A stretch of DNA of 62,598 bases, the filler included. It is 7 parts of 7 records of this genome, joined end to end, with 100 filler letters (N's around TTAATTAATTAA, not from the genome) between each part and the next. Parts side by side here need not be neighbours in the genome. Positions count along the whole stretch, not along the records: positions 37,736 to 39,832 come from SRR11831585_720; 6 more parts are not named here. One strand, 5' to 3'. The position numbers were made by a program, and so were the translations under genes. This document shows, piece after piece, positions 27,622 to 49,282 of the stretch. The notes beneath the pieces were generated by a model. The model was not told where the DNA came from and made no database searches. It saw only the letters and a program-made list of their open reading frames with translations. Numbering within the stretch: position 1 is the first letter of the stretch; each line of letters starts with the position of its first letter.

Positions 27622-27897
27622 TTAGAAAAATGCCAGCCAGAACAGCATGGCGTAGAGAGCAAAAAGGGCGGTATAAATAATTCCGACAAATGCCAGATTG
27701 ATATTTGCCCGCTGAATAACTCGCCTCGTGATGAGCGTCAAAATAAGGCTGGCAATGGCGCAGAAAAACCAGCTGGGATAATAAGCGCCGATCACCGGGA
27801 TTGCCGGAGATAATGAGCATCCCGAAACCATGAAGACGGGAATTATCCAGGCTGTTTTTTTGAGTTGCATCGCCATGCGAGAGAGAACTGTTGGCAT
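27622..27897 (-). CDS. ytcA: Small lipoprotein YtcA
   Basis: VSGC lipobox and GAYYPSW motif; upstream of mdtN. Confidence 0.8.
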   Translation of the reverse strand: MPTVLSRMAMQLKKTAWIIPVFMVSGCSLSPAIPVIGAYYPSWFFCAIASLILTLITRRVIQRANINLAFVGIIYTALFALYAMLFWLAFF

Positions 27898-28069
27898 ATT
27901 AAATACATCCTGTCTGCTGCGAACAATATCTGTAGTGAATATCAATATCCATTGAAGGCGTCAGTATGGCTATTTTCTTGATGAATAAAAATAGCTTTAT
28001 TCAGCCACCGCATTCATAACTTATATATTTTATTTATTAATTGGCTGTATATATTTTTAAAATAAATAC

Positions 28070-28095
28070 TTTTGGGGGCTTCAGCGCCCCCAAAA
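28070..28095 (-). terminator. Probable yjcS terminator
   Basis: TTTTGGGGGC...GCCCCCAAAA inverted repeat. Confidence 0.6.
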
Positions 28096-28105
28096 GCGAG
28101 TGACA

Positions 28106-30091
28106 TTAATTTGGGGTTACGATATTCACCCACAAATCGAAATTATCCAGACAGGCGATAATTTCTTCCAGTTTCGCGCCATTGCCAATAATTTTGGCTT
28201 TCTTCGCTTTTACCAGATCCGCCATTTTGGCTTGTCCGGTCAGCACGGCGTGCAGATCTTCACGGCTGATGTAGAAAGAGGCGTCGGCTTGCGGTTGCAG
28301 CGTTTTCCGGTAGTTAAGCACGCTATCGTTCAGCGTCAGGTTGAGGTTATCGCCGTTGCTCATATTGAAGTTCAGGCTGATATTTTTACCCGCAGCTTTC
28401 GCGCTATCGAGGCGAACGGCCATAAAGTCGAACAGCATTTCGACCGACATCCCGCGAATGGTGTCCGGGGAACCGGTGGTGCCGTGGCTGAACTTATGCA
28501 CCCCTTCGCGCAGCTCTTTCGCGCCGGTCAGGTAGAAACCGCGCCATGTGGCGGACTCGGCCTGATAGCCCAGCTGTTCAAAGTTATTCGCTTGCAGATT
28601 CTTCGCGACCTGGTCACCCGGGTTGGCGGCAATCACCTGTTTCAGCAGTTCTGCCGACCAGCGGTAATCACCTTGCTTGTTCGCTTCTTGCGCCAGGTTG
28701 ATGACACGGGCAGAACCGCCCAGCGCCTGCACGTAACGTTTACCCATCTCCACCTGACCATACGGATGCAGGTTAGCCGGGTTACCGTCGTAATAGCCAA
28801 GATAGAAGTTATACACCGCGCGGGCGTTGTGGCTGACAGAACCGTAATAGCCGCGGCTGGCCCAGTTATTGGCAAGTGCAGGCGGCAGCTTAATCATGTC
28901 GCCGATTTCATTCATGGTGTAGCCCTGGTTCGCCAGGTGCAGGGTCTGGTCGTGAATGTACTTGATGGTATCGCGGTATTTACCAATATAATCATTGATA
29001 TGCTTATTGCCCCAGACCGGCCAGGTGTGCGGCATAAACAGCACTTCCGCGTCGTTACCCCACATATCCAGCGTTTCGTTCAGATACTCGGTCCACTTGC
29101 TGGTGTCGCGGGTTTTCGCGCCGCGCAGAGTGTAGAAGTTGTGCAGGGTATGCGTGGCGTTCTCGGCGGTACACAGGGCTTTCAGGGCCGGAATATAGAA
29201 GTGCATTTCGGCTGGCGCTTCGCTACCTGGGGTCATCAGGAAGTCAAACTCCAGGCCGTCGATAATCATCTTCTCGCCAGTTCTGACGATAGTTTTCGTC
29301 GGTGCAATAATGCTCGGGTCGCCCGTTGCCAGCGTCACGCCAAGGCCATTACCCACATTGCCTTGCGCGTTGTGCGGCAGTAACAGACCGTAAGAGTAGA
29401 GCGCACGGCGGCTCATGATGTTACCCGCCAGCACGTTTTCGCTGATGGCTTCGTCCATAAAGCCTGCAGGGGCAATCACCTGAACTTTGCCGGATTTAAC
29501 ATCGGCTTCAGAGATAATGCCTTTCACGCCACCATAGTGGTCGGTGTGGCTGTGAGTGTAGATAACGGCAACAATCGGTTTTTGCGGACGATGCTGGAAG
29601 TAAAGGTCAAGTGCGGCTTTTGCGGCAGGCGGCGTCACCAGCGGGTCGATAACAATAATGCCTTTCTCGCCCTCAACGAACGTAATGTTAGAGATATCCT
29701 GGCCGCGCACCTGATACATTTTATCGGTGACTTTGAACAGGCCAGAAATACCGTTGATTTGCGACTGACGCCACAGGCTGGGGTTTACGGTTTCCGGCGC
29801 TGCGGCATTAATATCAAATTTGTAATCGTCCGCGCGGTAGTAAACTTTACCGTTCGCATCACGCAGAATACCTTCATCCAGCAGCGGGGCGATAAATCCA
29901 CGCTGGGCATCGTCAAAATCCTGACGATCGCTAAACGGTAATGATTTGGCGTAATTCTGATTAACCTGTTGGGTATATTGAGTGGCGGCTTTCGCTTCCT
30001 CTTTCGCGTTAGCGGTATTTACCATCATGCCGCTGGCGGCAGTTAACGCAATAACAATCCTGCTCAAACGGAATAACCGAGAGTTATTCAT
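28106..30091 (-). CDS. yjcS: Alkyl sulfatase (metallo-beta-lactamase fold)
   Basis: [10 protein letters not shown] motif; C-terminal SCP2-like domain. Confidence 0.93.
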
Positions 30092-30363
30092 ATAAATCTC
30101 CATTTATCATTTATGTCGTAAATATGTAATCCATGCAAAATACGTCATTTAAAGCTGGCGTTATCATAATTGGGAAATTGCGACTTTAATAAGTGGAAGT
30201 GTGAGCGGAACGCGCCATTTTATTAGGCATTTGTGCTGAAGAGGGAAAATTACAGTAAAACTATCATTGCAGAAAATAATATGAGTCGTTTTATGTGTTT
30301 ATTATATATATTGTACCTGTCGTTGGCACAGCGGGACATTGCGCTACTGTGCCAACGTTTTAC

Positions 30364-31972
<1,609 letters not shown>

Positions 31973-31982
31973 GTTCAATTCC

Positions 31983-32963
31983 TTACTTACTGATAAGACG
32001 GTCAAGGGCGACAGCCGCGATAATTAATCCGCCCATCACCACCAGTTGGTAATAGGTTTGTACCTGCAAAATATTCAGACCGTTGTTGATGGTGCCGATG
32101 ATCAACCCGCCAATCACCACAGAGAAAATGCGCCCCTTGCCGCCGAAGAAACTGGTGCCGCCAATGATGGCGCTGGCAATGGCATAGGTTTCAAAACCCA
32201 TACCGGCAAGCGGTTCTGCGGCACCGAGTCGTGCAGTTGAGACGACGCCTGCCAGACCTGCACAAACACCGGAGATGATAAACACCACCAGGATGTGGAA
32301 TTTCACGTCAATCCCGGAATAGAACGCCGAATTTTTGTTGCCGCCCAGTGCGTAGATGTTGCGCCCGAGCCGCATACGCGTTGTCAGAAACCAAAGGATG
32401 AGCGCGACAATTAGTGAGAAGATAACGGGGACAGGTATCCCAATTACGCTGGCGGCAAAGAAGTTCACGAAGTCAAATGAGAAGCCGTATACCGAGTTGG
32501 CATCGGAGATCACCAGCGTGATCCCACGGAAAATCGCGTTGGTGCCAAGGGTGATGATGAACGGGTGTAGCCCCGTCCAGTTGACCAGGCAGCCGTTGAT
32601 CGCCCCCAGTGCGCCGCCAACCAGTACACCGCCAATCATCGCTGCGAGAAACGGGTCAACACCTGCCAACATCAGTTTGGCGGTCACCATACCGGAAAGC
32701 GCCAGAATCGCGCCAACCGAGAGGTCGATACCAGCGACCAGGATAGCGAAAAACTCGCCCATGCCGATCAATACCGTCACGGAGCTTTGAACAAAAATCT
32801 GGGTAATATTATTGGTGGTCAGAAAATATTCTGGTGACAGCGAACCAAAGATGGCGACGATGATCGCCAGGATAAAAAAGGTGCCGTATTTATCCCAGAA
32901 CAGCGCAAAGTTGAACGGTTTCTTCTCGCTCGCTTCGCTTTTTACTCTTGTGGTAAAGCCCAT
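31983..32963 (-). CDS. alsC: Allose ABC transporter permease
   Basis: GIDLSVG and IIGGTSFFGG motifs. Confidence 0.96.
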   Translation of the reverse strand: MGFTTRVKSEASEKKPFNFALFWDKYGTFFILAIIVAIFGSLSPEYFLTTNNITQIFVQSSVTVLIGMGEFFAILVAGIDLSVGAILALSGMVTAKLMLAGVDPFLAAMIGGVLVGGALGAINGCLVNWTGLHPFIITLGTNAIFRGITLVISDANSVYGFSFDFVNFFAASVIGIPVPVIFSLIVALILWFLTTRMRLGRNIYALGGNKNSAFYSGIDVKFHILVVFIISGVCAGLAGVVSTARLGAAEPLAGMGFETYAIASAIIGGTSFFGGKGRIFSVVIGGLIIGTINNGLNILQVQTYYQLVVMGGLIIAAVALDRLISK

Positions 32964-34474
32964 GCCATAATCTCCTCTTCGCTCATGTCATCGCGATTCG
33001 TCAGGATTTGCGTCAGTCGTCCTTCGCAGAACACGGCGATGCGGTCGCAGACGGTGATAATTTCAGGTAGTTCAGATGACACCATCAGGATGACTTTTCC
33101 GTCGTCCGCCAGTTGGCGCATCACTTTGTAAATTTCGGCTTTCGCGCCAACGTCGATGCCGCGGGTAGGTTCATCGAAAATAATCACTTCCGGGCAACAG
33201 CACAGCCATTTGGAGATCAGGACTTTCTGCTGATTTCCCCCGGAGAGTTCGGTGATATTCTGGTTTACCGAATGACATTTCAGCGCCAGCAGTTCGCGTT
33301 GATTTTCAGCGGTACGTTGCTCGTCAACTTCATGAAACAAGCCCATCGCGCCTTTATAGCCGCCGTCTTTCAGACTGCGGCTGATCGCCATGTTCTGAGC
33401 GATGGAAAAGTTGGGGAAAAAACCGTTATCCCGGCGGCTTTCAGTGATGTAAGCCATCCCTTTTTTCACGGCATCCAGGGGTGAACGTGGAGAGATATCT
33501 TTGCCATTAAGACGGATTTCTCCGCCAGCGCGTTTATCCACGCCAAACAGACAATTCATCAGTTCAGTACGTCCGGAACCGACCAGTCCGGCAAAGCCTA
33601 ATATTTCTCCCCGGCAGACGCTAAATGAGATATCCCGGACCTTTTTTCTGTCACGACTGGTGACGTTCCGCACCTCAAAAACCGTTTCGTGCGCAAGGTT
33701 GCTGACATTCTCCTTCATCGCGTTAAAACGGTTTTGCAGTTCGCGGCCTACCATCAGACGGACGATATCGTCATTTGACACATCGCTTACTATGCCGCTG
33801 CAAACGCTGCTGCCGTCTTTCATCACCGTATAGCGGTCGCAAATACGGCGAATTTCCGCCAACTTATGCGAGATATAGACGATGGCCGTACCCTCTTTAC
33901 GCAACTGATTCATGATCAGAAACAGATAGTCCACCTCTTTATTGGTGAGTGAGGAGGTGGGTTCATCCATGATGATGACTTTGGCATCGAGCATCAGCGT
34001 TTTGGCAATTTCTAGCATCTGCTTGTGGCTGATAGATAAATTCGCCACTTTCTCATCTAGATCAACTTTCAAGCCCACGCGTAATAACATCATGGCGGCG
34101 CGGACACGCATTTCTCGCCAGTCGATAATATTGACGCCACAGATTTTTTTCGTCAGATGACGACCAATATATAAATTTTCCAGTACGGTTAATTCATCAA
34201 TAACGCTGAGTTCCTGATAAATAATCCCGATACCGAGTTGTGCCGCTAATTTATGATCCAGCTTGTTATAGCTAATGTTATTAATGGTAATGGTGCCTTT
34301 GGTCGGCTCATGTATTCCGGATAAAACTTTCATTAGCGTGGATTTACCCGCGCCATTTTCTCCTAGTAATGCATGTATTTCACCAGGATAAACCGTTAAA
34401 TTAACCGACTTTAATGCGTGAACCGGACCAAAGGACTTGCCGATCCCCGCCATCGATATATATGGCGTGGCCAT
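32942..34474 (-). CDS. alsA: Allose ABC transporter ATPase
   Basis: GENGAGKST and LSGGNQQK motifs. Confidence 0.96.
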   Translation of the reverse strand: MATPYISMAGIGKSFGPVHALKSVNLTVYPGEIHALLGENGAGKSTLMKVLSGIHEPTKGTITINNISYNKLDHKLAAQLGIGIIYQELSVIDELTVLENLYIGRHLTKKICGVNIIDWREMRVRAAMMLLRVGLKVDLDEKVANLSISHKQMLEIAKTLMLDAKVIIMDEPTSSLTNKEVDYLFLIMNQLRKEGTAIVYISHKLAEIRRICDRYTVMKDGSSVCSGIVSDVSNDDIVRLMVGRELQNRFNAMKENVSNLAHETVFEVRNVTSRDRKKVRDISFSVCRGEILGFAGLVGSGRTELMNCLFGVDKRAGGEIRLNGKDISPRSPLDAVKKGMAYITESRRDNGFFPNFSIAQNMAISRSLKDGGYKGAMGLFHEVDEQRTAENQRELLALKCHSVNQNITELSGGNQQKVLISKWLCCCPEVIIFDEPTRGIDVGAKAEIYKVMRQLADDGKVILMVSSELPEIITVCDRIAVFCEGRLTQILTNRDDMSEEEIMAWALPQE

Positions 34475-34600
34475 AAATAACCTCTCTGCACGAAATATCG
34501 TATTATTGCCTGATGGCTACATTTATCAGGTCTACGTTCAGGTTATTTTGTTGGCCGGATAAGACACTTCATTAGCATCATCATCCGGCATCATTCAGTT

Positions 34601-35536
34601 TTATTGAGTGACCAGGATTGAATCGACCAGTTTAAATTCCGGTGCTTTATCCAGCGGGATAACCTTGCCGGATTTCTCAGCGTCAACCATCAGCTTCAGA
34701 CCCGTTGCGCCGATATCCGCCGGGTTCTGGGCAACCGTCGCGGTCATTTGTCCGGCTTCCACCATTTTGCGGGCTTCCGGAATGCCATCTGTACCGACGA
34801 CCAGCACTTTTCCCGTTTTTCCGGCGTTTGTGACTGCCTGAGCAACACCCATTGCCATCGTGTCATTCGCGCAATAGATCGCTTTAATATTCGGATTACG
34901 TTGCAACACGTTAGTGGCGACATCCAGTGCTTTAATGCGGTCCCAGTCGGCAGGCTGGCTGGCGACAAGCTTGATCTGGCTTGCTTTTTTGAAGGCTTCG
35001 GTGGCACCATTACGACGCGCTTCACCGGAGGCGTTACCGGCTTTACCCTCAATGATTGCGACTTCACCACCTTCAGCGCCCAATTTGTCAATAATGAACG
35101 ACGCGCCTTTCGCCCCGACAGCAACGTTATCGGTGGTGACAAAAGCTTCCACATTGCCGCCAGCTTTTTTCAGATTATCCATGTCGATTTTTTCATCGAG
35201 ATTAACCAGATAAATGCCTTTTTTCCATGCGCGGGCGACAGGCATGACCAGATTCACTGAGGATAATGGAGCGAAGGCGATACCTTTGTAATTTTTATTA
35301 CTGAGATCTTCAAATAACTGCAATTGAGATTGAAAATCGCCTTCTGAAGGAGAGGCAAAAATATCAACGCTGACGCCCAGTGTTTTTGCTTCATCTTCAA
35401 TGCCTTTTTTCATATCTACCCAAAATGGGTTGGAGAGGGTTTTCAATACGACAGCATATTCGGCGGCAGCAAAAGCGCTGGTTGACAACATTAAGCCCAC
35501 GAGTGTGCCGCTGAAATATTTCAGATATTTATTCAT
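34601..35536 (-). CDS. alsB: Allose-binding periplasmic protein
   Basis: Signal peptide and LSNPFW motif. Confidence 0.96.
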   Translation of the reverse strand: MNKYLKYFSGTLVGLMLSTSAFAAAEYAVVLKTLSNPFWVDMKKGIEDEAKTLGVSVDIFASPSEGDFQSQLQLFEDLSNKNYKGIAFAPLSSVNLVMPVARAWKKGIYLVNLDEKIDMDNLKKAGGNVEAFVTTDNVAVGAKGASFIIDKLGAEGGEVAIIEGKAGNASGEARRNGATEAFKKASQIKLVASQPADWDRIKALDVATNVLQRNPNIKAIYCANDTMAMGVAQAVTNAGKTGKVLVVGTDGIPEARKMVEAGQMTATVAQNPADIGATGLKLMVDAEKSGKVIPLDKAPEFKLVDSILVTQ

Positions 35537-35594
35537 AATAATGTTCTCACGGTAAGGGGACAGGTAACTCCGCGATGGCGGAATTACCTTTTTC

Positions 35595-36485
35595 TTATTT
35601 CAGCGCGCCTGGTGAGAAGAAATCAACAATTGCGCCGGTTTTTTGCATATTAATATTAGCTTGTTCAATGTTGAGCTGGGCGACAGAGACAAAAAAAGCG
35701 TCCAGCAAAGTTAGTTGTAATATTCTTGCCGAGGCATTACGACCTAATAACGGCGTTTCCGGGGCTGGTGAGCAAATAATATAATCGGCCAGTTTCGCTA
35801 TCGGTGAATGGTAGCTATGGGTTATACAAATAATCTTTGCCCCGTTCTTTTTTGCCAGTTCTACGGCCGCTTTTACATCACTGGTTCGCCCGGAATGGGT
35901 CACTACCAGCACAACATCTCCTTCCTGTAACAACGAAGCGGACATCATCATGATGTGAGCATCAGGATAGGCCTGACAGCGTACGCCAATGCGCAAGAAC
36001 TTGTGCTGTACATCAGCACAGATAGCATTTGATCCTCCGGCACCGTACAAATCCCGCTGTCTGGCCTGATAGAAAAAGCGGGCGGCACGGTGGATCTCAT
36101 CAACGTTGACGATCGACTGACCTTCCATAATGGTGCGTAAAGTGATGTTAAATACCTTATTCACCACATCCTGCGGCGCTTCATCAAAAGCCAACTCGGA
36201 AGGCAATACCTGTTCTGACTGAGAAAAATAATCTTCCAGCGCACTGCGTAAGTTACGAAAGCCGCTAAACCCCAGCAGCTTTGATACCTTAACTATCATC
36301 GCTTCAGATACCGCCAGAGCTTCTGCGACATCTTTAATTGCGGGTGCACAACTCAGGTTACCGGGTTTGAGTAACCACTCCACGATGCGGCTTTCATTTT
36401 CTGTCATTCCTTCCTGCTTCATTCGCAGGTAAGGCGCTAACCCTATACCGTTCGGAAGCGCTGAATCAAACTCTGACTGGCTCAT
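35595..36485 (-). CDS. alsR: RpiR-family repressor AlsR
   Basis: HTH plus SIS domain; divergent from rpiB. Confidence 0.95.
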   Translation of the reverse strand: MSQSEFDSALPNGIGLAPYLRMKQEGMTENESRIVEWLLKPGNLSCAPAIKDVAEALAVSEAMIVKVSKLLGFSGFRNLRSALEDYFSQSEQVLPSELAFDEAPQDVVNKVFNITLRTIMEGQSIVNVDEIHRAARFFYQARQRDLYGAGGSNAICADVQHKFLRIGVRCQAYPDAHIMMMSASLLQEGDVVLVVTHSGRTSDVKAAVELAKKNGAKIICITHSYHSPIAKLADYIICSPAPETPLLGRNASARILQLTLLDAFFVSVAQLNIEQANINMQKTGAIVDFFSPGALK

Positions 36486-36843
36486 CACGTTCTCTTGTCC
36501 TTGAATTGAAGACGCCACTATATCACCACAGCAAGAACAGAAAAGATGCTGGCGACTTCACAAAAAAATAAAATTTATAAAGTTTATTTTATTGTGAACA
36601 ATGGCGAGTGGCTTAAAATTTTATTTCATTTAATTAGTTTAAAAACATGATGTTATTTGTTTTTCTGGTTTTTTAGATGATAGATGTTGCTGGATGGTGA
36701 GTGTCTTTAACGCTATTGCGCTGTCAGATGTAACTCTGTAAAACAGATCAGGAAGGCGTAATTCATCGATTTTGGGTGTTTTTAATTCATTAACATCACA
36801 AATGTTTTTTGATTGTGAAGTTTTGCACGGACGGGGAAGATGA

Positions 36844-37293
36844 ATGAAAAAGATTGCATTTGGCTGTGATCATGTCGGTTTCATTTTAAAACATGAAATA
36901 GTGGCACATTTAGTTGAGCGTGGCGTTGAAGTGATTGATAAAGGAACCTGGTCGTCAGAGCGTACTGATTATCCACATTACGCCAGTCAAGTCGCACTGG
37001 CTGTTGCTGGCGGAGAGGTTGATGGCGGGATTTTGATTTGTGGTACTGGCGTCGGTATTTCGATAGCGGCGAACAAGTTTGCCGGAATTCGCGCGGTCGT
37101 CTGTAGCGAACCTTATTCCGCGCAACTTTCGCGGCAGCATAACGACACCAACGTGCTGGCTTTTGGTTCACGAGTGGTTGGCCTCGAACTGGCAAAAATG
37201 ATTGTGGATGCGTGGCTGGGCGCACAGTACGAAGGCGGTCGTCATCAACAACGCGTGGAGGCGATTACGGCAATAGAGCAGCGGAGAAATTGA
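36844..37293 (+). CDS. rpiB: Ribose-5-phosphate/allose-6-phosphate isomerase B
   Basis: GCDHVG and CGTGVG motifs. Confidence 0.97.
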   Translation: MKKIAFGCDHVGFILKHEIVAHLVERGVEVIDKGTWSSERTDYPHYASQVALAVAGGEVDGGILICGTGVGISIAANKFAGIRAVVCSEPYSAQLSRQHNDTNVLAFGSRVVGLELAKMIVDAWLGAQYEGGRHQQRVEAITAIEQRRN

Positions 37294-37361
37294 GATTCAT
37301 CCACTACTTGCATGGATGAGTAATGATTAATGTGGATAGAGTTTCTTTTTGAGGTTGGCTA

Positions 37362-37635
37362 ATGAAACGCTTTCCGCTATTTCTTTTATTCACCCTGCTC
37401 ACGCTGTCCACCGTTCCGGCCCAGGCCGATATTATCGACGACACCATTGGCAATATTCAGCAGGCGATTAATGACGCTTATAACCCTGACCGTGGGCGAG
37501 ACTATGAAGATTCGCGCGACGACGGCTGGCAGCGTGAAGTGAGCGACGATCGGCGCAGACAATATGACGACCGCCGCCGCCAGTTTGAAGATCGCCGCAG
37601 GCAGCTGGACGATCGCCAGCGCCAGCTTGATCAGG
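37362..37635 (+). CDS. yjdP: YjdP (DDRRRQ repeat protein), truncated at contig end
   Basis: Signal peptide plus DDRRRQY/F/L heptad repeats. Confidence 0.88.
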
Positions 37636-37735
37636 NNNNNNNNNNNNNNNNNNNNNNNNNNNNNNNNNNNNNNNNNNNNTTAATTAATTAANNNNNNNNN
37701 NNNNNNNNNNNNNNNNNNNNNNNNNNNNNNNNNNN
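37636..37735. other. Artificial contig spacer
   Basis: N44-TTAATTAATTAA-N44. Confidence 0.98.
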
Positions 37736-37935
37736 CACCAATGCGATCTCGATACACCACAACACTCACAAACACTCATCACCACTCTGAAAGAAGACCT
37801 CTTGCAAACACAACACACAAGCTCAGTGTGGACTCAACAACACGACCCCTAACACAAACATCACACACAAAGAACCCACATCAAGCGTTACACACTCACC
37901 ACACACGCGGAGATACAACGTCCCTGTCGATCCTG

Positions 37936-38828
37936 TCACATAGCCGGACCGACATACGAATACTGATGTACAGGCGACGCCTGCGGATACCCATCGAAAG
38001 GACGCGATGGCGAGAACGTGCGTGTCTGCGCAAGCACGAGTGGGGTCTCAGTGGTGGCGATAGTGGTGGGCGGTGTAAAGCAGCGGAAGCGATCCATCAA
38101 GTAATGAAACTCCACGATAGAGCACCCGGGAGCGGAGTTGCGTCGTTGAAGGAGATGCGGTGGACAGGAGCATCCTTCGGGATCGAAGCTGTGCAGTGGT
38201 GGCAGCAGAGTTTTTGGTGTTGTTGTTTCGGAGCTGGACACGGAGTACGCTGCGTCGGAACTGTGTGAGTGCTGTGATGTGTTGAGGACGCGATTACGGT
38301 CGTGTCTACATGCAAACGGTAAGGTGATGTACAGAGCGCACAGATTGAAGCATTGTGAAACGTACCGCTCCATAGGATATTCAACGACTTGACGTGATGC
38401 CTCCATGTGCCCACGACGATGACGGGAGGAAAGCAACAGAGCAGGCGGGATTATATCTGCAGCTCATGTTAGAGTGATCCCAGTTGAATTCCGACAAAAC
38501 GGGCATACCTGCGCTGAGGCCATTCAGCACACGGACACGTTCATCGAGGAGTTTGTCGTATTGTTCCGATGTATTGTTTCCCTTGAGCGTCATCGCTACC
38601 AGATGGGTATCCAGATGCTTGAGACGCTGGTGAGGCCAGCGCGCCACGCCTAAGCAGACATGAGTCGCGCCAATCGCGAATCGCGTACTTCCGCTAACAC
38701 GTACCAAACTTTCGGCAGGCTTTCTTCACCGATGTCACACACAGTTGCAGCTGACGCGCGGCGTCCTCAATGGGCAGATGAAACACGGAGGACAGCTCTT
38801 CCTTCGAAACCAATCTGCGCTTTACCAT
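37936..38828 (-). CDS. Eukaryotic RWP-RK domain transcription factor, 241 aa, join(38828-38705, 38649-38509, 38456-38366, 38305-37936)
   Basis: Manual splicing gives 124+141+91+370 = 726 nt of open frame: MVKRRLVSKEELSSVFHLPIEDAARQLQLCVTSVKKACRKFGVARWPHQRLKHL...YVGPAM*. Confidence 0.85.
38306..38365 (-). other. Spliceosomal intron 3 (60 nt)
   Basis: GTACGT...CTTAC...TGTAG; frame-preserving and stop-free. Confidence 0.7.
38457..38508 (-). other. Spliceosomal intron 2 (52 nt)
   Basis: GTATGC...CTAAC...TGCAG; its removal joins two otherwise out-of-frame ORFs. Confidence 0.85.
38650..38704 (-). other. Spliceosomal intron 1 (55 nt, phase 1, inside the RWP-RK domain)
   Basis: GTACGT...CTCAT...CTTAG; its removal restores KKACRKFGVARWP. 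Confidence 0.88.
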
Positions 38829-39832
38829 TCTTTCCTCTCTCCTGCTTACACGTCTTCGAGCGGACTGCTGCTTGTTTCAGGTGCTCCAATTATACGCCTG
38901 TGTGCGTGAGCGAGCGACCAATGGCGCACACCAAACACAATCAGTATGTGTGCATGTGCTGTATGGAGTAATGAGAACACGTGCTGGGCCACTACGCTCC
39001 ACATACGGGCGCCTGCCACAAATGGTATACAACGGGCGAATTTCCCTCTTTGAGTAATTGCCACCGTTCGATAGGCTGGTTGACAACTAATGGTCATGTC
39101 AAGCGCCTGTCACCGGATCGACCGTTCGTCTTTGTCGGACTTACGGCAACTATGGGCAAAGACAGCGGCTAGGTTGCGCGTCGCTGCAGGTTTGCGCTCG
39201 GCTTGACCATGCCGGTCTCCTGTTCGCCCTCACCAGAACACCGTATCAAAACTGCACGCACTAGCTCCGAGCGCCTCTCTGTGGTGTTCGTTCGCGCGCA
39301 GTGAAGGAAAATGAGCATCGCGACACCTTCTGCCAGAACCATGCTTGAGAGGGCGATAATCAAGAGGGCCACTATATGCGTCATGATTCATGCCCGTCGT
39401 TCTAAAACGTCCAGAGTCTGAAAGCTAACTTGAAAACATAAACATGGTACGGTGTGGAGCGGGATCGTGCGTACTGGGCGGGCTTGTTGGCCGCTCCACT
39501 GGTTTGCCGTCATTCCTTAACAGTACTCTAACTGCTCTTTGCAAATTGCACTACGTGTTCCACTGACGTGCACGGACCTGCGCATGATGGTGTATTTTTT
39601 CGGTACGTTGTTTCTTATAGCACTTACTCTGACTACCACACAGTAGCTAGTCTACGTCCACACAAACAGTCCTTGCAGATCTACGGTCTGAGGAAGGGAC
39701 ATCCGGTTTTGTTCTTGAAGCAGTTTGCAAGACTCTTGTGTCAGGTTTTGGATCTCGAGCATGACTGCTTGGTTTTGCGTTTCGGATGCGAATCTGCGCC
39801 GTGGTACCAGTAGACTGTATCGTTCTCGTCGC

Positions 39833-39932
39833 NNNNNNNNNNNNNNNNNNNNNNNNNNNNNNNNNNNNNNNNNNNNTTAATTAATTAANNNNNNNNNNNN
39901 NNNNNNNNNNNNNNNNNNNNNNNNNNNNNNNN
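39833..39932. other. Artificial contig spacer
   Basis: N44-TTAATTAATTAA-N44. Confidence 0.98.
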
Positions 39933-40189
39933 AAAAAAGCCAGATGCCTGAACGTAATCTCGCTGTGATCGAGGGATTTGTTTCCCGCATTGACGTTCTG
40001 GATTACGACGCTGCTGCTGCCACACACACCGGCCAGATAAGAGCAGAACTTGCCCTTCAGGGACGCCCTGTCGGGCCATTTGATCAAATGATCGCAGGTC
40101 ATGCCCGCAGTCGGGGACTGATTATTGTGACTAATAACACCCGGGAATTTGAACGTGTGGGCGGCCTGAGAATTGAAGACTGGAGTTGA
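39933..40189 (+). CDS. vapC: PIN-domain toxin VapC (5'-truncated)
   Basis: GPFDQMIAGHARSRGLIIVTNNTREFERVGGLRIEDW is a VapC/MvpT C-terminus. Confidence 0.9.
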
Positions 40190-40197
40190 CCTGTTCA

Positions 40198-42351
40198 TCA
40201 GAAATCATCTCCCGGCTCAACATCCTCCCCGCGCTCCCGGTGCACATTAATGTTCACCTCTTCACGACGCTGCATCTGCTGCTGGATGTCCGGATGATTT
40301 TCCTGTTGCCATGCCTCATAAGCGGCCATATCCACCACTTCACCGGATTCACTGATCCCGGGTGGCAGTTGCTGTTCCATCTCTTCTTCCGGTTTCATTT
40401 TCAGCTCCTGCTCGATCCCCCCTGCCGGAACATTCACACCTGAATCTGACTTCTTATCGTTGATGGCAGGAGACACCGGCTGTTGCGGCTGTTCAGCCTG
40501 AGTCACGTCTTCTCCGGAAACAACCTCCGGGACATCCGGTTCGAAGAGGCTGGCCATCTGACGACCTTCTGCTTCCCTTGCGGCAAGTACGGCACTCAGA
40601 CGGTTCTCCATTTCCGGGTTGATGTCACGCGGAATAAACTCCGGAGCGACCTTCGGTCGTGTCTGATATTTCAGAGAGAGTTTTACTGCCGGATACGGTC
40701 CGGGCAGGGTGACATAACAGGTCAGATCCGGCAGAGACTGAATGTCGGAATAACTGACCAGCGTCTGGCGCTCCATATCCTTACCGGTCGATACCCCGTC
40801 ACGTACCGGATCAGCACCGTAGGAATACTGCTCGCTGGCTTTCAGGTGCTCTTTCTCACCAATTTCACCGGCAGCGAACTCTGCAATCTTATGGCTGGGA
40901 GAACGGAAAAAGGCACGGGTGTTCATGACGTCAAACAGCGAGGCAGCCGCTTTCTCACCGTAGATATCTTCCAGCTGGGCATAGGACTGGATACCAAACA
41001 CATAACAGCCACCGAACTTACGGGCTTCCGGCAGGATCTCCACCAGGTCCGGCAGTTTGTGTAACGTGGGTAACTCATCACAGAAAAACCACACACGACG
41101 GTTACGGTTTTCTCCCATTGCCAGCAGACCACGAATGGCAATGGACAGCCACATGGAGATCACCGGCTTCAGGGAGGCATGGGTGTCGGCATTCGACGAA
41201 ATAAACAGCCAGCCGTTTTTCTGATCTTCCCGGACACCACGCATCCAGTCACGGATGGTAAAAGGCTCACCGTTATGCTCAATCCCCTGCAGGTAACGGA
41301 TGGCTTTCACGTAGTTGGTCAGCACAGCACGGATGGAAATCGCCGTTTTCTCAATTTTCTCTTCCACCAGGTTGGCCGCCGGTGAATTACGCAGGTAGGT
41401 ACGCAGTTTTTCAATTTTGATGGAAAGCAGTGTGTCCACCAGTTTGCTGTAGCTGCGGTTGGGGTCATTACGCATCAGATACGCCGCTTCCGCAAAAATG
41501 GTACGTCCTGAACCCTGCCAGAACGGGTCCTCTTTTGTACCCATCGGGATCAGAGTATTTGCGGTATTATCAAAATCCGGCTGTGTCAGGCACTCCTTCC
41601 ACAAATCCCAGGCGGCACAGCGGGCATCCAGCGGATTCAGGATTTTATCGATGGAGGGATCATAGTAACTTTTAACAAATTCCCCCGAACGGTCATAAAT
41701 CACCACCATATCACCGCGCTGACGGGCGTAGTTGGCCAGACGACGGATAACTTCCGACTTACCGGCCCCGACCGTGCCGTGCAGACAGAAGTTCTGGATT
41801 TCGGAATCCCGGATAATCGGCAGGTCTCCAATCCGGATATCGGAGTCCTTGCCGTCTTTTTTCAGCATCCGGGCAACGTCTTTCGGATTGTCTGTCAGCT
41901 GACGACCACCTGTGACTTCATTTTCGCTCTGTTGTTTACCCTGACGCCCCAGAATCCAGGAGACAACAAAGAAGGTAATCAGGCAAATAACCAGTGCCAC
42001 AACAGCAGCCAGCACGAAGGCGGACCATAACTGCTCACTGCACCAGATCATATATTTGTCATGCAGTACCTGAGCAGCGTTCATGCGGAAGGTTTTACCG
42101 TAATACTGGATCTCATAGACCGGCTGGGATTTGATTAAATCCCGCATGCCTTCCAGCGTGGTACACCACCAGTAAATACAGCCGTTCACAAACGTCTGCC
42201 AGCTTATTTTTATCCATAAAACCAGACCAACGAGTATCCAGAAAAAAATAAACAGGCAGTAAAGCATGATATTGGCGATCTGGCTGAACATGCGGATACG
42301 CATGGACGCAATCTGACCGCCCTGGGTCATATCCTTTGCGTTAAAACTCAT
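40198..42351 (-). CDS. traD: Type IV coupling protein TraD
   Basis: GTVGAGKS Walker A, CDEL Walker B, C-terminal PGDDF TraM-binding tail. Confidence 0.98.
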
Positions 42352-42571
42352 GATGATATTCCGAAGAAAAAAAGTCAGTCGGACTGATTATTAATGATGA
42401 AAAGATTAATAACCGTTAAATTCCGGCTTCGCCGGCAACACTTCACGGTCGCACAAAGAATTTGCACAACCGCTCAGTGTTTTCATATTTATTTCGGAAA
42501 CGCCGGGGAGAAATAAAATTTATTTTATTTCTTTCCGGGGTTGGACAACGAGCAAAGCGAGGCGTCAGTCA

Positions 42572-42594
42572 GGAGGCCGGTCAGACCAGCCTCC
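42572..42594 (-). terminator. Stem-loop 3' of traT
   Basis: GGAGGC-CGGTCAGACCA-GCCTCC inverted repeat. Confidence 0.5.
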
Positions 42595-42603
42595 GGAAGA
42601 TAA

Positions 42604-43338
42604 TCAGAGAATATTTGCGATTGATTTGGCCAGCTGGTCTTCGAGAACAGGCTTCGCCTCTTCAAATTTCAGGTTAACCTTGTTCGCATTTGAGACCACA
42701 CGGGTCTGGTATTTATGCTGGTTACCTGTTTCTGTACTGGTCTGAATTTTCGCACCTGATGTGCCCTGACGCAGGGCGGCAACATTATCCGTTGTCACCG
42801 TTGCCTTAGTACGCTCTGCAATCTGCACATCCGTGATCATGGTATAGTTCACATCTTCCACCATCGCATCTGCAGCCATACCCACCAGACCGGCAGCAAG
42901 GCCCACACCGAGTGTGGCACCGGCAGAATTGGAATTATATCCGGTGATACCGGCACCTAACGCTGCACCAACTGCTGCGCCTTCATAACCACGGTTCAGC
43001 CATCCCTGAGACTCCCGCAGATCCATCTTATCGGCCTTCAGCACATTCGCCTGAATCCAGTAGTAGGCTTTATCCGGAGAAGTCACCACCTGATACCCTT
43101 TTGCTTTCACAGCATCAGCAATTTTGCCCTGCAGCCCACTCATGTCTTTATCAGACGTGTTTTTGATCTGCAGAAATACCGTGCGTTCGCTGGCGGGTTC
43201 AAGCCAGATGGTCTCACTCATCTGAGTCTTCACCTCAAGGTTACGCTTCTTGATTGCTGTGCTCATCGCACCACACCCTGAAAGGGCCAGAGTGGAACTG
43301 ACCAGTGCAACCATCATTAGTTTTTTTGTTTTCATCAT
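42604..43338 (-). CDS. traT: Surface exclusion/serum resistance lipoprotein TraT
   Basis: LSGC lipobox followed by [19 protein letters not shown]. Confidence 0.98.
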
Positions 43339-43359
43339 ATATTTACTCTCTAATATCTT

Positions 43360-43881
43360 TTATTTTACTCTTGATAACTTCTTGTTTTTGACGTAACTAT
43401 TGATTGCATCAATAACACCAACAAATTGATATCTACCGATATCTAATTGAATCAAGAACGCCATAATAACCGTCACTAAAATTGCGCCAAAACCGTATAT
43501 AATCCCTCCACCTAAAAAAGACCATAAAAATATAACTCCCATATACACAATGAAATACACTTTAAGTTTTGATGATATAACCCTCATTACGGATGATGTC
43601 TTTAGGAATTCTTCCGGCAGAGAGAAATATAACATTCTAATCCTTGCCACAATAAACAGAATAATAAGTCCAAGCCATCCTCCGGCTAACACAGCAGTGA
43701 GTGTTTCACTTGTCTTTTGTGTTATTAGAAATGACATTAGCAAGGGACAAAAAATCATCCACCCCATGATGATAAGCCCGGGTTTTAATCCCTGCCATAG
43801 TGACGGAATTCTAATATCTCCTGAGTCAATATGTTTCTTTAAAACTTCCAACTCACTACTGATAATTTGTTGTGTAATCAT
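43360..43881 (-). CDS. traS: Entry exclusion protein TraS
   Basis: AT-rich membrane protein gene between traG and traT. Confidence 0.9.
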   Translation of the reverse strand: MITQQIISSELEVLKKHIDSGDIRIPSLWQGLKPGLIIMGWMIFCPLLMSFLITQKTSETLTAVLAGGWLGLIILFIVARIRMLYFSLPEEFLKTSSVMRVISSKLKVYFIVYMGVIFLWSFLGGGIIYGFGAILVTVIMAFLIQLDIGRYQFVGVIDAINSYVKNKKLSRVK

Positions 43882-43913
43882 GGTCTCTCCATACCCTACC
43901 CAACATGTTATGA

Positions 43914-46730
43914 TTATTCTTTATGCTGGTAACTCTTTGCTTTCTCTAAAAGCTCTTTCGGACTATCAGCACCAGGTATTCTTTCCTGAGCCAGCTTTTC
44001 TTCATTATATTTATTATTCTGAGTTAATGCTTCTGTTTTATGATGATTTTGTAGTTCAGAATACTGCCCTTTTACAATATTTTCCTCGCCTCGGATGCTG
44101 TTCTGAGTATCTCCGATATTACCTCGATATTCTGTGACCATATTATCAACCTGATGTTTTACATCATTACGGATATTACTGTCCTGCGTTCTTTGCTCAA
44201 TAATGGCCTGATGTCCCTGATGATCAGCAATAATATCCTGGCTGCCACCACCCGAAGGTACGCTCTCCATTCCTTTACCTATATCTCTACGGGATTCACG
44301 CCAGGTGTTATCAACACCAGGCTGTACCTGTTCCTGCACAAAAGACCACGCCATAGCCCGACGGCGTTCTGCAATCTCCGGCGAACTGGTATTTGTCAGA
44401 ATAGCTTCAACATCCTGCGGTGCGTTTTTCATCACATACTGTGCAAACTGTTGCGACAGATCTTCACTCATCTGCCCACTCATACTCTCAGTACGGGATG
44501 CCATTTCAGCATATTCATGGCTGCGGGTCATATTCGTCGTGTACTGGTCGTAACTCTGTTTCGCTGAATTCAGGGCTGCAGACAACTGATCCACACGGGA
44601 ATCAGCATTATTGTCAGTATGGCTGCCGGATTCACTGACTTTGCGGCTGGTAAAGTAATCGCTGGCTTCTTTAAAGTCTTGTGTAGCTCTGGCATCGATA
44701 TCATGACGAGCATCATGGCTGGCCCGTGAACCACTACTGGCTTCATGTGAGTCAAGATCACTGCCATCAATGCTTGCCTTAGCTCCGGCCTGGAGACCAA
44801 CCCCTCCACCGTTACCCAATACACTTATGCCTAAATGCCCTTTAGCATAAGCATCACCGTAAAGGCCAAGCGACGCATTTGTACTTCTCGAGGCCAGTTC
44901 TCTCGTCGCCTGCTCATTACTGATATTATGCGCCTTCGCATAGCTTTCCACTGCACTGCGCATACGGCTGGCCATCATGGAGTCCTGAGCACTCATCGTG
45001 CTGTCAGCACCACCAGTGACAGAGTCACTGCTCCCCCGGTTAGAGCCAAACTGACTGAGTGTGTTCCAGGCACTGGCAATACTGCTGCTGAAACCATGCA
45101 GGGCACTTTCGGCTCTGTTCGACGCCTCCCGGGCCATTTCCTGTTGTGCCGCTGCAATCTGACGCGTTGCATTGATACCGACCGGTAACCGGGACATCGC
45201 TCCGCTTGCATCCATCACCATATTACCGTCACGGGTCTGTGTGGCGGTTGCGCCACTGCCGGTCTGGTACATCATCTGACCAAACGACGTGGTGCTGTTG
45301 GTGCTCCAGCTGAAGCCGTTCACGTTTTCCGTCTGCATGTTGCCGTAGGAGTAATTACCGTCAACCACACTGCCTGCTGCACTGGCCGTTGGACTGATAG
45401 ATGAAGAGGCGAAGTGGCTGTACACGCTGGAAAAACCTGCGCCAAGGCCTTTTACCATCATCCATGACAACGGGGGGATCATGGCTGAAAGATACCCGGC
45501 AGTGGAGGCCAGGTTAGAGTATTTCAGCTGTATCTGAGAGAGTTCAGACAACACGACCGGCGCACCATTCTGTTTCGCATAGAATGTCATGGCACTGTTC
45601 AGAATGGCATACAACAACGGCCAGGTCTGCAGCCACATCAGGGCAAACACATACCCCTTTAATACAGACAATGTCAGCTTGTTAAAGACAGCCGCCAGTA
45701 TCAGGAGCGGGAATATACCAATGGCAATCCCCGTCAGGATAGTCTGGACCATCGGCAGGTTTCGCATAGTTACATGACCAATGGAGACATGTGCCAGACG
45801 TTGTTTCTCCATCGATGACGTGGTGGCCAGACTTACCAGGCTGGCGGTGTCACCGTTACGGGCTGCATTACTGGTGATACCCTCTTTCAGGGCATTCATG
45901 GTGACGTTCTGGCGCATAATCTGGCTGGCAGACTGACTGGAGCCGTAGAAATAACTGTAACTGTCACTGACCAGTTGTCTGAATAACAGGTCCGGGTCCG
46001 GTCTGCCGCCAAATATCTGCTGCACATAATAATGCCAGGTCTTGCCTCCCGTCTTTGTATCGAGATTCAGCCTGTCTTTCAGCGTGACCGACGCATCCTT
46101 ACAAGTTATGAAATTATTATTGTTGTCATAAACGCCCCGTAGCGGGCTGGGGCGGGAAAAAATCAGCGTGTAGGGGTCAGCGGAGGCCATCAGGTCTTCC
46201 AGCGTGTATTTATGATTCAGGTAAATATCACCCAGCACGCAGTTCTGGACGTAGTCCTGGAACAGATTGATGATTTCCGGATTCCGGGACAGGAAATCGG
46301 TGCTTTTCACAATCAGATTCGCCCCGAACAGCATCCCCGTTTTGCTGTAGGTGACGCTGTCCGGTTGCGTGAAGATCATCTCGTAACTGGCCACCATTGC
46401 ATGCCCGATACGGGTCGTCAGTGAAAGTGGCATCGCCAGACCGACCGGCACATTATCCACCCGGTGAACTTTGACCAGGTCACTGTTATCAATAATCTGC
46501 ACCGATGTGCGGACATTAACCAGCAGGCTGATAAGCACAAACACGGCCACCCAGCCCAGCAAATCCATCACGTTGTGCCGCTGTACCCACATTACGGCCA
46601 CCGCGAGAACAGACAATGTGAGCGCAATTTTTTCAATGGAATCCCACGTCCAGGTTCCCATAAAGGCGGCAATGGCGTTCAGGTTATTCCGCAACCACTC
46701 ACCACCGGCAATCACATAAACTTCATTCAC
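43914..46730 (-). CDS. traG: Mating-pair stabilisation protein TraG
   Basis: MNEVYVIAGGEWL..., 938 aa. Confidence 0.97.
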   Translation of the reverse strand: MNEVYVIAGGEWLRNNLNAIAAFMGTWTWDSIEKIALTLSVLAVAVMWVQRHNVMDLLGWVAVFVLISLLVNVRTSVQIIDNSDLVKVHRVDNVPVGLAMPLSLTTRIGHAMVASYEMIFTQPDSVTYSKTGMLFGANLIVKSTDFLSRNPEIINLFQDYVQNCVLGDIYLNHKYTLEDLMASADPYTLIFSRPSPLRGVYDNNNNFITCKDASVTLKDRLNLDTKTGGKTWHYYVQQIFGGRPDPDLLFRQLVSDSYSYFYGSSQSASQIMRQNVTMNALKEGITSNAARNGDTASLVSLATTSSMEKQRLAHVSIGHVTMRNLPMVQTILTGIAIGIFPLLILAAVFNKLTLSVLKGYVFALMWLQTWPLLYAILNSAMTFYAKQNGAPVVLSELSQIQLKYSNLASTAGYLSAMIPPLSWMMVKGLGAGFSSVYSHFASSSISPTASAAGSVVDGNYSYGNMQTENVNGFSWSTNSTTSFGQMMYQTGSGATATQTRDGNMVMDASGAMSRLPVGINATRQIAAAQQEMAREASNRAESALHGFSSSIASAWNTLSQFGSNRGSSDSVTGGADSTMSAQDSMMASRMRSAVESYAKAHNISNEQATRELASRSTNASLGLYGDAYAKGHLGISVLGNGGGVGLQAGAKASIDGSDLDSHEASSGSRASHDARHDIDARATQDFKEASDYFTSRKVSESGSHTDNNADSRVDQLSAALNSAKQSYDQYTTNMTRSHEYAEMASRTESMSGQMSEDLSQQFAQYVMKNAPQDVEAILTNTSSPEIAERRRAMAWSFVQEQVQPGVDNTWRESRRDIGKGMESVPSGGGSQDIIADHQGHQAIIEQRTQDSNIRNDVKHQVDNMVTEYRGNIGDTQNSIRGEENIVKGQYSELQNHHKTEALTQNNKYNEEKLAQERIPGADSPKELLEKAKSYQHKE

Positions 46731-48103
46731 AGCGTGCTCCCTCCGAAGTGATAGTTGTTCTGGTAACGACTGAGCATGCGGGCGGAAAGCTGCTGACGCA
46801 TGTAGCTCATCTGACGATCGACAACCAGCAGCGCATCCTGCTGTACCTGCACCTGTGACTGAAACGCCGCAATCTGCCGGGTGGCATCATTCATGTTGTC
46901 GTTAATATGCCCGATAACCGCTTCGTCATAATTTCCCGTGGCCACCATCGCCCGTGCCTGCTGTATCAGCTCCTGAATGTACTGCAGCAGGATGTCGTAA
47001 CCGATATAGTCCGTCAGCTGGTAAATCATACTGTTGGAAACACCGAGCATCTGCGGGTCAACCAGGTATTTGAAGACGGGGATGGTGGTACTGGAAATAA
47101 AGCCTTTTTCCTTGTCATCCAGAGGCGTGTCACTGACAGCCTTGTTCTGAATGCTGGCCAGAAGTTTAGTAATCTGAGACTTCAGTGCATTATCCCGGCT
47201 GATGGTCACCGGTGTGTCTGCCACCACTTTCAGGCATTTATCAGAATCGTTGCAGTGAGAAATTTTTGCTGTGCCGCCTTCCATCATGGCCCGGATAATT
47301 GAACGGTCAGTGGTTCTGGCTGACAGCGGTGTGATTTCGCCGTTGGGACCAAACACCAGTGAGCCGGTCAGCGTCATCACAAACTCTTTCAGCTCTTTGT
47401 TGCCGTCAAACATTCTGTTTTTGGAAAGCGCATTCCACATGATGTTGATGTTTTTGGTCACCCGCTCCTTATCCTTGTCGCTGGCTTTATCCCTGACGCT
47501 GTCAGATTTCCCGCCAACGGTACATCCCTGCCGGGAAGCCGCCCAGTCAGCAAAAATATTGCTCTCACCGGCAATGTCCTGACAGACTTTTTGCTGGGAC
47601 ACCTGCGTCCGGGGGAAAAGCCCGCCGATAATCCCCTGTGCAGCCTGGCAGGAACTGAGGTTCATACTGTTAATGTCGCTTGCCATTTTCTGCAGGAAGT
47701 CTTTTGCGGTTTTTATTTCCGGCACCGTTGTCTGCAGGGCAAGGTCAAAAAAGTAACCGGCAGCATTGCTCATAATCTGCTTAACAAAACGCTGCAACTG
47801 CTCACCATTAATAAAACTGAACGAGCCGAGATAGGCGTCGATGCCGCCACATCCAGCATTGATATCCGGCAGCGTCATGGAAATTAGCTGAACATTTTTG
47901 ACCTGAGTACGGGCATACAGGGAGCCACCGTAAGCATAGCCGGCGGCCTGCCCCTGCCAGACGCCCGGCTGTGTGGTATTGGAAGCAAATCCCAGCTTAT
48001 TAAAGAACTGATTCATGTCGCTGTTCACATCCGCTGACGCTGCAGGCGTCACCGTCAGTAAGGCGGCACAAAGAACCAGAAGAGGTTTAATGCGTGGCAT
48101 CAT
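46727..48103 (-). CDS. traH: Pilus assembly protein TraH
   Basis: AGCGGIDAYLGSFSFIN motif. Confidence 0.97.
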   Translation of the reverse strand: MMPRIKPLLVLCAALLTVTPAASADVNSDMNQFFNKLGFASNTTQPGVWQGQAAGYAYGGSLYARTQVKNVQLISMTLPDINAGCGGIDAYLGSFSFINGEQLQRFVKQIMSNAAGYFFDLALQTTVPEIKTAKDFLQKMASDINSMNLSSCQAAQGIIGGLFPRTQVSQQKVCQDIAGESNIFADWAASRQGCTVGGKSDSVRDKASDKDKERVTKNINIMWNALSKNRMFDGNKELKEFVMTLTGSLVFGPNGEITPLSARTTDRSIIRAMMEGGTAKISHCNDSDKCLKVVADTPVTISRDNALKSQITKLLASIQNKAVSDTPLDDKEKGFISSTTIPVFKYLVDPQMLGVSNSMIYQLTDYIGYDILLQYIQELIQQARAMVATGNYDEAVIGHINDNMNDATRQIAAFQSQVQVQQDALLVVDRQMSYMRQQLSARMLSRYQNNYHFGGSTL

Positions 48104-48480
48104 TCTTGCCCTCCCTTAATGTGTTCTCCCGGTGCATACGACATTTCAGCAGGAATATCTCGATATTTCCGTATATTAATTCGTACATTGGGGACAGAAA
48201 AAAATGTAACAAGAAACCCGGCTGCAAGCGCATATAACGTATACGGAATGGCATATATCAGGATATTCCACATATAACTCGAATTATTTAATTCCGGGTC
48301 CGCTTTCCACGAATCAATACAGGCATCAAAAATAATATCCATAACTGTCCATAAAACAATTCCGGCAGTCAGGAATACCAGAGACAATCCAGCATACCTG
48401 CCAGTAATTCTGGAAATGTATTTATAATCTCGTTCTGTACTTCTGATTTTGAGTTCAGGATTACTTTTATTTTCTCTCAT
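48100..48480 (-). CDS. trbF: TrbF
   Basis: MRENKSNPELKI..., between trbJ and traH. Confidence 0.85.
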   Translation of the reverse strand: MRENKSNPELKIRSTERDYKYISRITGRYAGLSLVFLTAGIVLWTVMDIIFDACIDSWKADPELNNSSYMWNILIYAIPYTLYALAAGFLVTFFSVPNVRINIRKYRDIPAEMSYAPGEHIKGGQE

Positions 48481-48748
48481 TATAAGTTCCCTCTGATATT
48501 TCCGATGATTCATTCAGACCGGTCATGCGGCTGTAATATATTTCAGACACCGAAATCCATCCCACAATTGCCCCCACAAAAAACACAACAGAAACAGAAA
48601 AGGTAAGACTCAGCGAAACGACAATTTCTACAGGGCTGGCGGGATAAAAAAGCCCCTGACGGATAAAGGGGATATTCAGGCTGACGATTATTCCCGTCAC
48701 GATGCCGGATATTCCGGCAATGAGTAACACCACCTGCTTATTTCGCAC
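48467..48748 (-). CDS. trbJ: TrbJ (GTG start)
   Basis: (M)RNKQVVLLIAGISG..., 93 aa, synteny. Confidence 0.8.
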   Translation of the reverse strand: MRNKQVVLLIAGISGIVTGIIVSLNIPFIRQGLFYPASPVEIVVSLSLTFSVSVVFFVGAIVGWISVSEIYYSRMTGLNESSEISEGTYNERK

Positions 48749-49282
48749 CTTTTTTTCCTCCGTACATCTGCAAAACGGTATCCACCCGCGCCATAAAACC
48801 GGCGGCATCCGTTGCCCCCTGTAAAAGCGGTAATGCCTCAAGCGTGTTGACGTTGACCAGGAAGGTGGTCGGTGTGGCCACCGGGATATTCGGGAAGAAG
48901 GTCTGCATCACGTCCGGTGGCACCGGTAATGCTTCAGGAAAGGCCGTATCCCCCTGACCATCCAGGGTGTAGGAAAAACGGAAAAGCCGTACTGCTGTGC
49001 CAGCTGTTTCAGTACCGGGTCAAACTGGTGACAGTAAGGGCAATGCCCCTGCATAAACAGCACCACCTTCCAGTCGGCCAGGTTAACCTGCCTGCCATTA
49101 CTGAGACGGAACCAGCGGGGAGCCGGCTTTGCTGTCCTGGCTGACGTGCCTGCTGCCGGTTGTGCAGGCTGCGTAGCCATACCCTGCGGATTCCAGAGTC
49201 GCTCTATTTCATCCCGGGTGGAGGCCTGCACAGCAGCGGCGCTCAGCAACAGGGTGAACAGCAGTGATTTAGTGAGAGACAT
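48738..49282 (-). CDS. trbB: Thioredoxin-like disulfide isomerase TrbB, 1-nt frameshift near 48975 (likely artefact)
   Basis: CPYC motif in ORF 48908-49282; C-terminus in ORF 48738-48923; span of 545 nt is one short of a multiple of 3. Confidence 0.88.

Follow-up and report, generated by a model that had tools for sequence, protein, structure and literature searches.

The RWP-RK family of DNA-binding proteins governs, in other lineages, the response to nitrogen or the programmes of gametes and mating type, and its RKD type is exemplified by the plant RKDs and by MID of Chlamydomonas. As set out in PMC7399023, the family occurs in Viridiplantae, Stramenopila and Amoebozoa and is described as absent from metazoans and fungi. 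The same source defines the RKD subfamily by the presence of the RWP-RK domain only, and assigns to the NIN-like proteins (NLPs) a C-terminal PB1 domain together with an N-terminal nitrate-responsive region. The RWP-RK domain itself is described there as four helices, the last of which opens with the signature motif; within this motif W2 and P3 are the most conserved positions, R1 and K6 being less so. Cross-kingdom contamination of bacterial assemblies is, according to the Conterminator survey (PMC7218494), well documented.

The DNA considered here, referred to below as the window, is a whole stretch of 62,598 nt (positions 1-62598) filed as E. coli. Positions 37736-39832 of this window very probably represent stand-alone eukaryotic nuclear DNA carrying one small, RWP-RK-only gene on the minus strand, and not a part of a bacterial genome; the source eukaryote is probably an alga or protist.

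Within this contig RWP-RK is the only Pfam family that rises above its cut-off in the 4 + 18 ORF translations searched. None of the 18 translations of other ORFs in 37736-39832 reaches a Pfam cut-off, the best being Shugoshin_N with 13.4 bits against 30, and the approximately 1 kb upstream of the gene holds no Pfam-bearing ORF. With the NLPs the encoded protein has the DNA-binding domain in common; but Pfam applied to the ORF translations finds neither PB1 nor the N-terminal nitrate-responsive/GAF region encoded on 37736-39832, so that the architecture is RKD-like, with RWP-RK only, and not that of an NLP. The likeness to the RKD type thus consists of a single RWP-RK domain without PB1 or GAF and of small size. 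The protein differs from that type, however, in having its domain at the extreme N-terminus, in a signature that reads RWPHQR against RWPxRK, and in its place in the domain tree, which is away from plants. The label RKD-like, which the original prediction had attached to this gene, consequently describes the architecture but finds no counterpart in a grouping with plant RKDs in the domain tree, where resolution is weak. As far as comparison permits, the protein would be classed as a member of the RWP-RK family that belongs to no named subfamily and is RKD-like in architecture only.

The contig and its surroundings

Six identical linkers cut the window into seven segments. Those that bound the contig lie at 37636..37735 and 39833..39932; each is one of the six copies of an artificial contig-join sequence, N44 + TTAATTAATTAA + N44. 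The linkers are of the six-frame-stop type. Between the two is the contig of 2,097 bp (37736..39832, GC 0.53), which is the sole non-E. coli segment that was found in the window. In the other segments, the parts tested show 100% identity with either laboratory K-12 strains (DH5alpha/DH1 type) or the F plasmid: this holds for the rpoD/dnaG segment (1-11007), the cre/arcA segment (11108-19796), the als/rpiB/mdt part (25000-37635) of the segment that starts at 19897, the F tra gene segment (39933-50957), the cas3/cysJIH segment (51058-58556) and the preTA segment (58657-62598). These segments are out of chromosomal order, which marks the record as a pseudomolecule of unordered K-12 contigs. The host of the assembly is an F-bearing K-12 of the cloning type.

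Because the flanks are artificial spacers and not E. coli sequence, the RWP-RK gene stands on its own small contig, and because this separate contig is joined to the rest by linkers only, its presence is that of an assembly contaminant or of a cloned fragment. A eukaryotic gene hidden inside an E. coli assembly had been predicted, and the contig is indeed filed in such an assembly, but with linkers on both sides it does not lie inside E. coli DNA. A transfer from a eukaryote to E. coli, with the fragment integrated in the K-12 chromosome or the F plasmid, is in this context extremely improbable: nothing speaks positively for it, the contig ends being merely unplaced, whereas both ends adjoin artificial linkers, the host K-12 is 100% identical to reference clones and the gene would not be expressible without splicing. 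That the contig derives from a eukaryotic lineage without a sequenced close relative appears likelier than integration into K-12.

Searches with the contig point in the same direction. Positions 37736-39832 have no megablast match in the 5,426 E. coli genomes (20,395 records) compared, and no blastn match, ends included, among 72,556 plasmids, nor any similarity to vectors; an exact 51-mer from the contig gave 0 matches in prokaryote genome contigs representing 185,579 species. The RWP-RK profile (PF02042) likewise gave 0 matches in the nearest E. coli genome, which is 64% complete, and in 14 control genomes, a search that is no proof of absence. With Rfam the contig returned only a sub-threshold IRES_c-myc, whose 15.4 bits fall short of the gathering score of 40. 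Judged from sequence, the RWP-RK contig is contaminating or cloned eukaryotic DNA and not a hidden E. coli gene; the basis for reading it as a contaminant is the lack of linkage and of similarity to E. coli, and not a named donor.

A genomic insert, for example from a small-insert library clone, carried on a vector in an F-bearing K-12 cloning strain would agree with host contigs that are 100% identical to strains of the DH5alpha/DH1 type and that include F tra genes, and a length of 2.1 kb suits a small-insert clone; but the plasmid comparison covered the contig to its very ends and revealed no vector or plasmid similarity there, and we consider a cloned insert unlikely. The preferred course of events is that a eukaryotic fragment of 2.1 kb would have been co-assembled with the F-plasmid-bearing K-12 and then concatenated with its contigs via the artificial linkers.

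A foreign eukaryotic contig filed as E. coli is a problem of assembly quality, since the ORF fragments called from it would be meaningless and studies of the pan-genome or of horizontal transfer could be led astray. The case resembles those which the Conterminator survey (PMC7218494) describes, in that a short contig from another kingdom likewise stands under a bacterial assembly. It differs from them, as they are presented there, in that the donor matches no searched collection, so that the contig would escape screens that need a labelled reference; and because there is no match in any of the collections searched, contamination screens based on similarity may miss it. RWP-RK biology gains from the contig one further divergent protein of the RWP-RK-only kind, its domain split by an intron and its source probably an unsampled alga or protist; alone this is a modest gain. 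The gene is an ordinary further member of a known family, its link to E. coli is not biological, and it would be of use only once the donor has been identified.

The RWP-RK domain and its interrupting intron

The gene model runs on the minus strand from an ATG at 38828 to a TGA stop at 37938-37936. When three GT..AG stretches are taken out and the exons are joined by script, it comprises 726 nt, that is 241 aa plus the stop; the same frame is closed by a stop 48 nt before the ATG. The coordinates, the intron borders and both lengths of the product given by the original prediction were each reproduced by recount, as were the joins between out-of-phase frames that it had claimed for the first two introns, whose lengths of 55 and 52 nt are not multiples of three.

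Exon 1 (38705..38828, 124 nt, 41 codons plus 1 nt) carries positions 2-36 of the 49 in the Pfam RWP-RK profile PF02042. By itself it reaches 48.2 bits (E 1e-12), and the 60-aa ORF that holds it 49.6 bits, where the cut-off is 29.3. The frame of exon 2 (38509..38649, 141 nt) supplies the remaining profile positions 36-49, that is the end of the domain with the signature RWPHQR, followed by a two-helix segment. In both instances Pfam was scored on the separate exon frames. A significant domain match had been named in advance as the check on the RWP-RK assignment, and the score of exon 1 alone is sufficient to confirm it.

Intron 1 (38650..38704, 55 nt, GTACGT..CTCAT..TAG, phase 1) lies inside the RWP-RK domain, and the unspliced frame ends two codons inside it. 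The evidence for this intron comes from the relatives. With exon 1 as query, HMMER run exhaustively over 1.84 billion representatives retrieved 61 proteins at E<=1e-3, of which 60 contain PF02042 and none PB1 or GAF; the exon-1 ORF, compared with longer proteins in a word-indexed search, had no match. On extension of the query from exon 1 to exons 1+2 the best-domain score rose in 59 of the 61 relatives, the gain exceeding 5 bits in 58 of them and averaging 18.3 bits, as compared with 0.01 bits for shuffled exon 2 (20 shuffles, maximum 1.99) and 1.95 for the unspliced 88-aa read-through. Similarly, on a profile built from 60 relatives only, the junction of intron 1 ranks first among the 69 GT..AG candidates nearby, scoring 87.4 bits where the second-best reaches 78.7 and the unspliced reading 65.6. 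Intron 1, the removal of which restores a conserved frame, thus has the best support that a comparison of sequences can give. The expectation that a prokaryotic gene caller would break the gene into fragments accords with this intron-containing reading and with the early stop of the unspliced frame.

After removal of intron 1 the domain is complete, extending approximately over residues 7-55 at the N-terminus of the protein and possessing both its W-P core and its C-terminal helix, which come from positions 36-49 in the exon-2 frame. In the signature RWPHQR the R-W-P is kept, while the fifth and sixth positions read QR instead of RK. The form xWPxRK is found in 31 of 82 motifs from 58 relatives and R at the fifth position in 73 of the 82, and the pair QR is seen in none. 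With Q at the fifth position, the specificity or affinity of DNA binding may differ.

Two separate AF2 models, of exon 1 and of the peptide from exon 2, and not of one chain, were available for comparison with the described fold. The first places helices at residues 9-13, 20-27 and 31-40 (pLDDT 87.2, from a 35-row alignment), and the second, for the 46-aa exon-2 peptide, at its residues 3-22 and 27-45 (pLDDT 83.6, single sequence), the former of these two beginning right after R-W-P. The helices predicted for exons 1 and 2 agree with the four-helix RWP-RK layout as PMC7399023 presents it. When the exon-1 model was compared by fold with the PDB, nothing matched at E<=0.001; helix-turn-helix DNA-binding domains head the rows, but with E of about 1-2 they are no more than a hint. 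The helical stretch that follows the domain aligns with that of RKD-like plant relatives, for example P0002 and P0041.

The product has an N-terminal RWP-RK domain and then a two-helix segment conserved with relatives. From what is known of the family, the four-helix domain is predicted to bind promoter DNA as a helix-turn-helix-like module, the helices after it may mediate pairing, and a low-complexity S/T/P-rich tail may serve activation. The gene is inert in E. coli, since its DNA-binding domain is broken up by a spliceosomal intron and the unspliced frame stops early.

The proposed introns 2 and 3 and C-terminal tail

Downstream of exon 2 the model continues with a proposed intron 2 (38457..38508, 52 nt, GTATGC..CTAAC..CAG), a proposed exon 3 (38366..38456, 91 nt), a proposed intron 3 (38306..38365, 60 nt, GTACGT..CTTAC..TAG) and a proposed exon 4 (37936..38305, 370 nt), which would encode the S/T/P-rich tail up to the TGA, all on the minus strand. 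Intron 2 is proposed from its fit to the motif and from the joining of frames, exon 3 from frame arithmetic only, intron 3 from its match to the motif together with the donor hexamer of intron 1, and exon 4 from its open frame. Both introns are close in length to the 55 nt of intron 1 and have, 10-13 nt ahead of the acceptor, a branch-like CTNAY; the donor GTACGT is common to introns 1 and 3; and removal of intron 2 links exon 2 to the sole long downstream open frame. The intron-like motif occurs 4 times on the minus strand of the contig against 0.23 expected, with P(>=3)=0.003, a figure that overstates the case because the motif was defined after the introns had been seen. In the E. coli segments its frequency is 0.13 per equal length. 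Intron 3 is in frame and stop-free, and if it is kept an open frame of 261 aa results; the reading frame therefore does not require it.

It is thus resemblance to splice motifs that argues for introns 2 and 3. On this basis intron 2 is plausible, and we regard it as probably real, whereas for intron 3 the balance tips more gently towards a genuine intron. The full model, in which two further short introns bring the product to 241 aa, is favoured by a narrow margin. The motif also occurs at 38959-39006 on the minus strand (48 nt, GTATGT..CTCAT..CAG), approximately 130 nt upstream of the ATG. This is possibly a 5'-UTR intron, the transcription start then lying beyond 39006.

The extended product has to be weighed against one in which only intron 1 is spliced. 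When this intron alone is removed the frame closes after 130 aa, inside proposed exon 3, which would make the product a minimal RWP-RK protein and the downstream 'exons' a 3' UTR. The record of relatives is compatible with such a product, as it includes proteins of 85-157 aa, of which some are maybe fragments. Alignments to the relatives run through the whole of exon 2 to approximately residue 87, where homology ends and low-confidence matches of low complexity follow. The last 153 residues of the product are without homologue, and for the 175-aa C-terminal frame a word-indexed search among proteins of near length found none. Nor is the length of this frame informative: an open frame of 175 codons appears in 15.5% of Markov-randomised contigs (P=0.155). 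The opposite strand offers a stop-free frame of 176 aa at 37738-38268 (plus strand), antisense to proposed exon 4 and without Pfam match, so that long open frames in this region are no evidence of coding in themselves.

A codon-position likelihood trained on exons 1+2 gives the proposed phase of exons 3+4 as the best of six, but 744 of 2000 shuffles equal it, so that no significant coding signal emerges in these two exons, as a 130-aa product would have it. Against that product, the same model scores the intron-2-retained tail at -0.102 per nucleotide and exon 3 at +0.015, a weak difference. Also against it are the two intron-like motifs of 52 and 60 nt, one of them with GTACGT, a short way downstream on the same strand, where 0.23 are expected per contig strand (the motif being post hoc), and the fact that intron 2 lands exactly in the sole long open frame. 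All in all, a product of 130 aa seems to us the less probable outcome, though one to be taken seriously, and the longer protein is retained as the preferred model. Of the three introns originally predicted, then, the first is borne out by the relatives and by the ranking of its junction; the second and third, and with them the S/T/P-rich tail, lack independent support.

A resemblance between CSIVEFHYLMD in exon 4 and the C.EAV[ML].YL motif of certain relatives was considered and rejected, since a profile of 13 relatives reaches at most 1.9 bits in the six frames, and this on the other strand, leaving exon 4 unmatched. Likewise, a profile built from the tails of three proteins of the nearest clade scores at best -3.8 on the contig, a value equalled by 138 of 300 random contigs.

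Relatives and the source of the contig

Among 30 clusters of relatives that were looked up, 10 bear an organism name, and 9 of these 10 are eukaryotes. They comprise the cryptophytes Baffinella, Hanusia and Teleaulax, the red alga Bangiopsis, the glaucophyte Cyanophora, the green alga Chlamydomonas incerta and the plants Stephania, Mangifera (RKD4-like) and Spirodela; the tenth is a Myxococcales bacterium. Together with a GT..AG intron inside the domain and with the lack of Pfam-bearing ORFs in the roughly 1 kb upstream, this distribution sustains the eukaryotic origin proposed at the outset. The accompanying statement that the family is not found in bacteria was too strong. One relative, P0045, is a protein of 209 aa labelled 'RWP-RK domain-containing protein [Myxococcales bacterium]' on a contig of 2.5 Mb, and since it is bacterial by label, membership of the RWP-RK family is alone no proof of eukaryotic origin. 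A search of the literature on bacterial RWP-RK proteins in myxobacteria returned nothing relevant by title.

The existence of P0045 raises the question of whether the gene could be a bacterial, for example myxobacterial, RWP-RK pseudogene that has suffered a 55-nt insertion or a frameshift. Several observations speak against such an origin. The interruption starts with GTACGT, ends with TAG and has a branch-like CTCAT 10 nt before its 3' end; when it is excised exactly, the spacing of the domain is restored best among the 69 alternatives. Furthermore, the 2.1 kb contain one Pfam-bearing ORF only, and the window protein stands apart from P0045 in the tree. In the prokaryote genome contigs of the 185,579 species a pattern scan produced 574 matches, none of which is a relative by tblastn. 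We judge a bacterial pseudogene to be very improbable, and a eukaryotic nuclear gene remains the preferred reading.

In the domain tree, which is based on 70 columns, places 60 of the 61 relatives, is weakly resolved and has a bootstrap that did not converge, the window protein has as its smallest supported group one of 6 rows (99/87) with the environmental and cryptophyte proteins P0019, P0026, P0029, P0042 and P0048, with Bangiopsis next, and apart from the Mangifera RKD4-like protein, Stephania and Spirodela. None of the relatives is more than 44% identical to it over the 70 columns, and its best relatives are cryptophyte and red-algal; P0042 in turn has a relative in Rhodomonas salina at 38% identity. 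With the five proteins of its group the window protein shares CVTS.KK.CR, in the region of the recognition helix, and all are short with tails of low complexity, but their N-terminal lead MLYPRKK and their C-terminal tail DPSF..D[FY][LM] are absent from it. The survey in PMC7399023 reports that oomycete RWP-RK members are nearly all single-exon, which is, to the extent of that report, a mild argument against an oomycete donor.

Five distant loci in AT-rich metagenome contigs (L001-L005), with 36-41% GC, show 56-63% identity over 32 residues. At L001:2111-2206, L003:2860-2955, L004 and L005:10001-10096 the RWP-RK domain is also broken by an intron, which starts with GT directly after the RWPGRK codons; because its position differs, these loci speak neither for nor against the junction of intron 1 in the window.

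A further observation concerns the relatives themselves. Thirteen short proteins (P0012, P0022, P0030, P0035, P0037, P0039, P0040, P0043, P0044, P0052, P0054, P0058 and P0061), one from the cryptophyte Baffinella and the rest environmental, have the C-terminal motif C.EAV[ML].YL in common. It often precedes NFDFMF or ISEADVESMLSDD, and many of these proteins have an N-terminal lead FFPRRK. By these shared features the thirteen appear to form an uncharacterised conserved subfamily of RWP-RK proteins.
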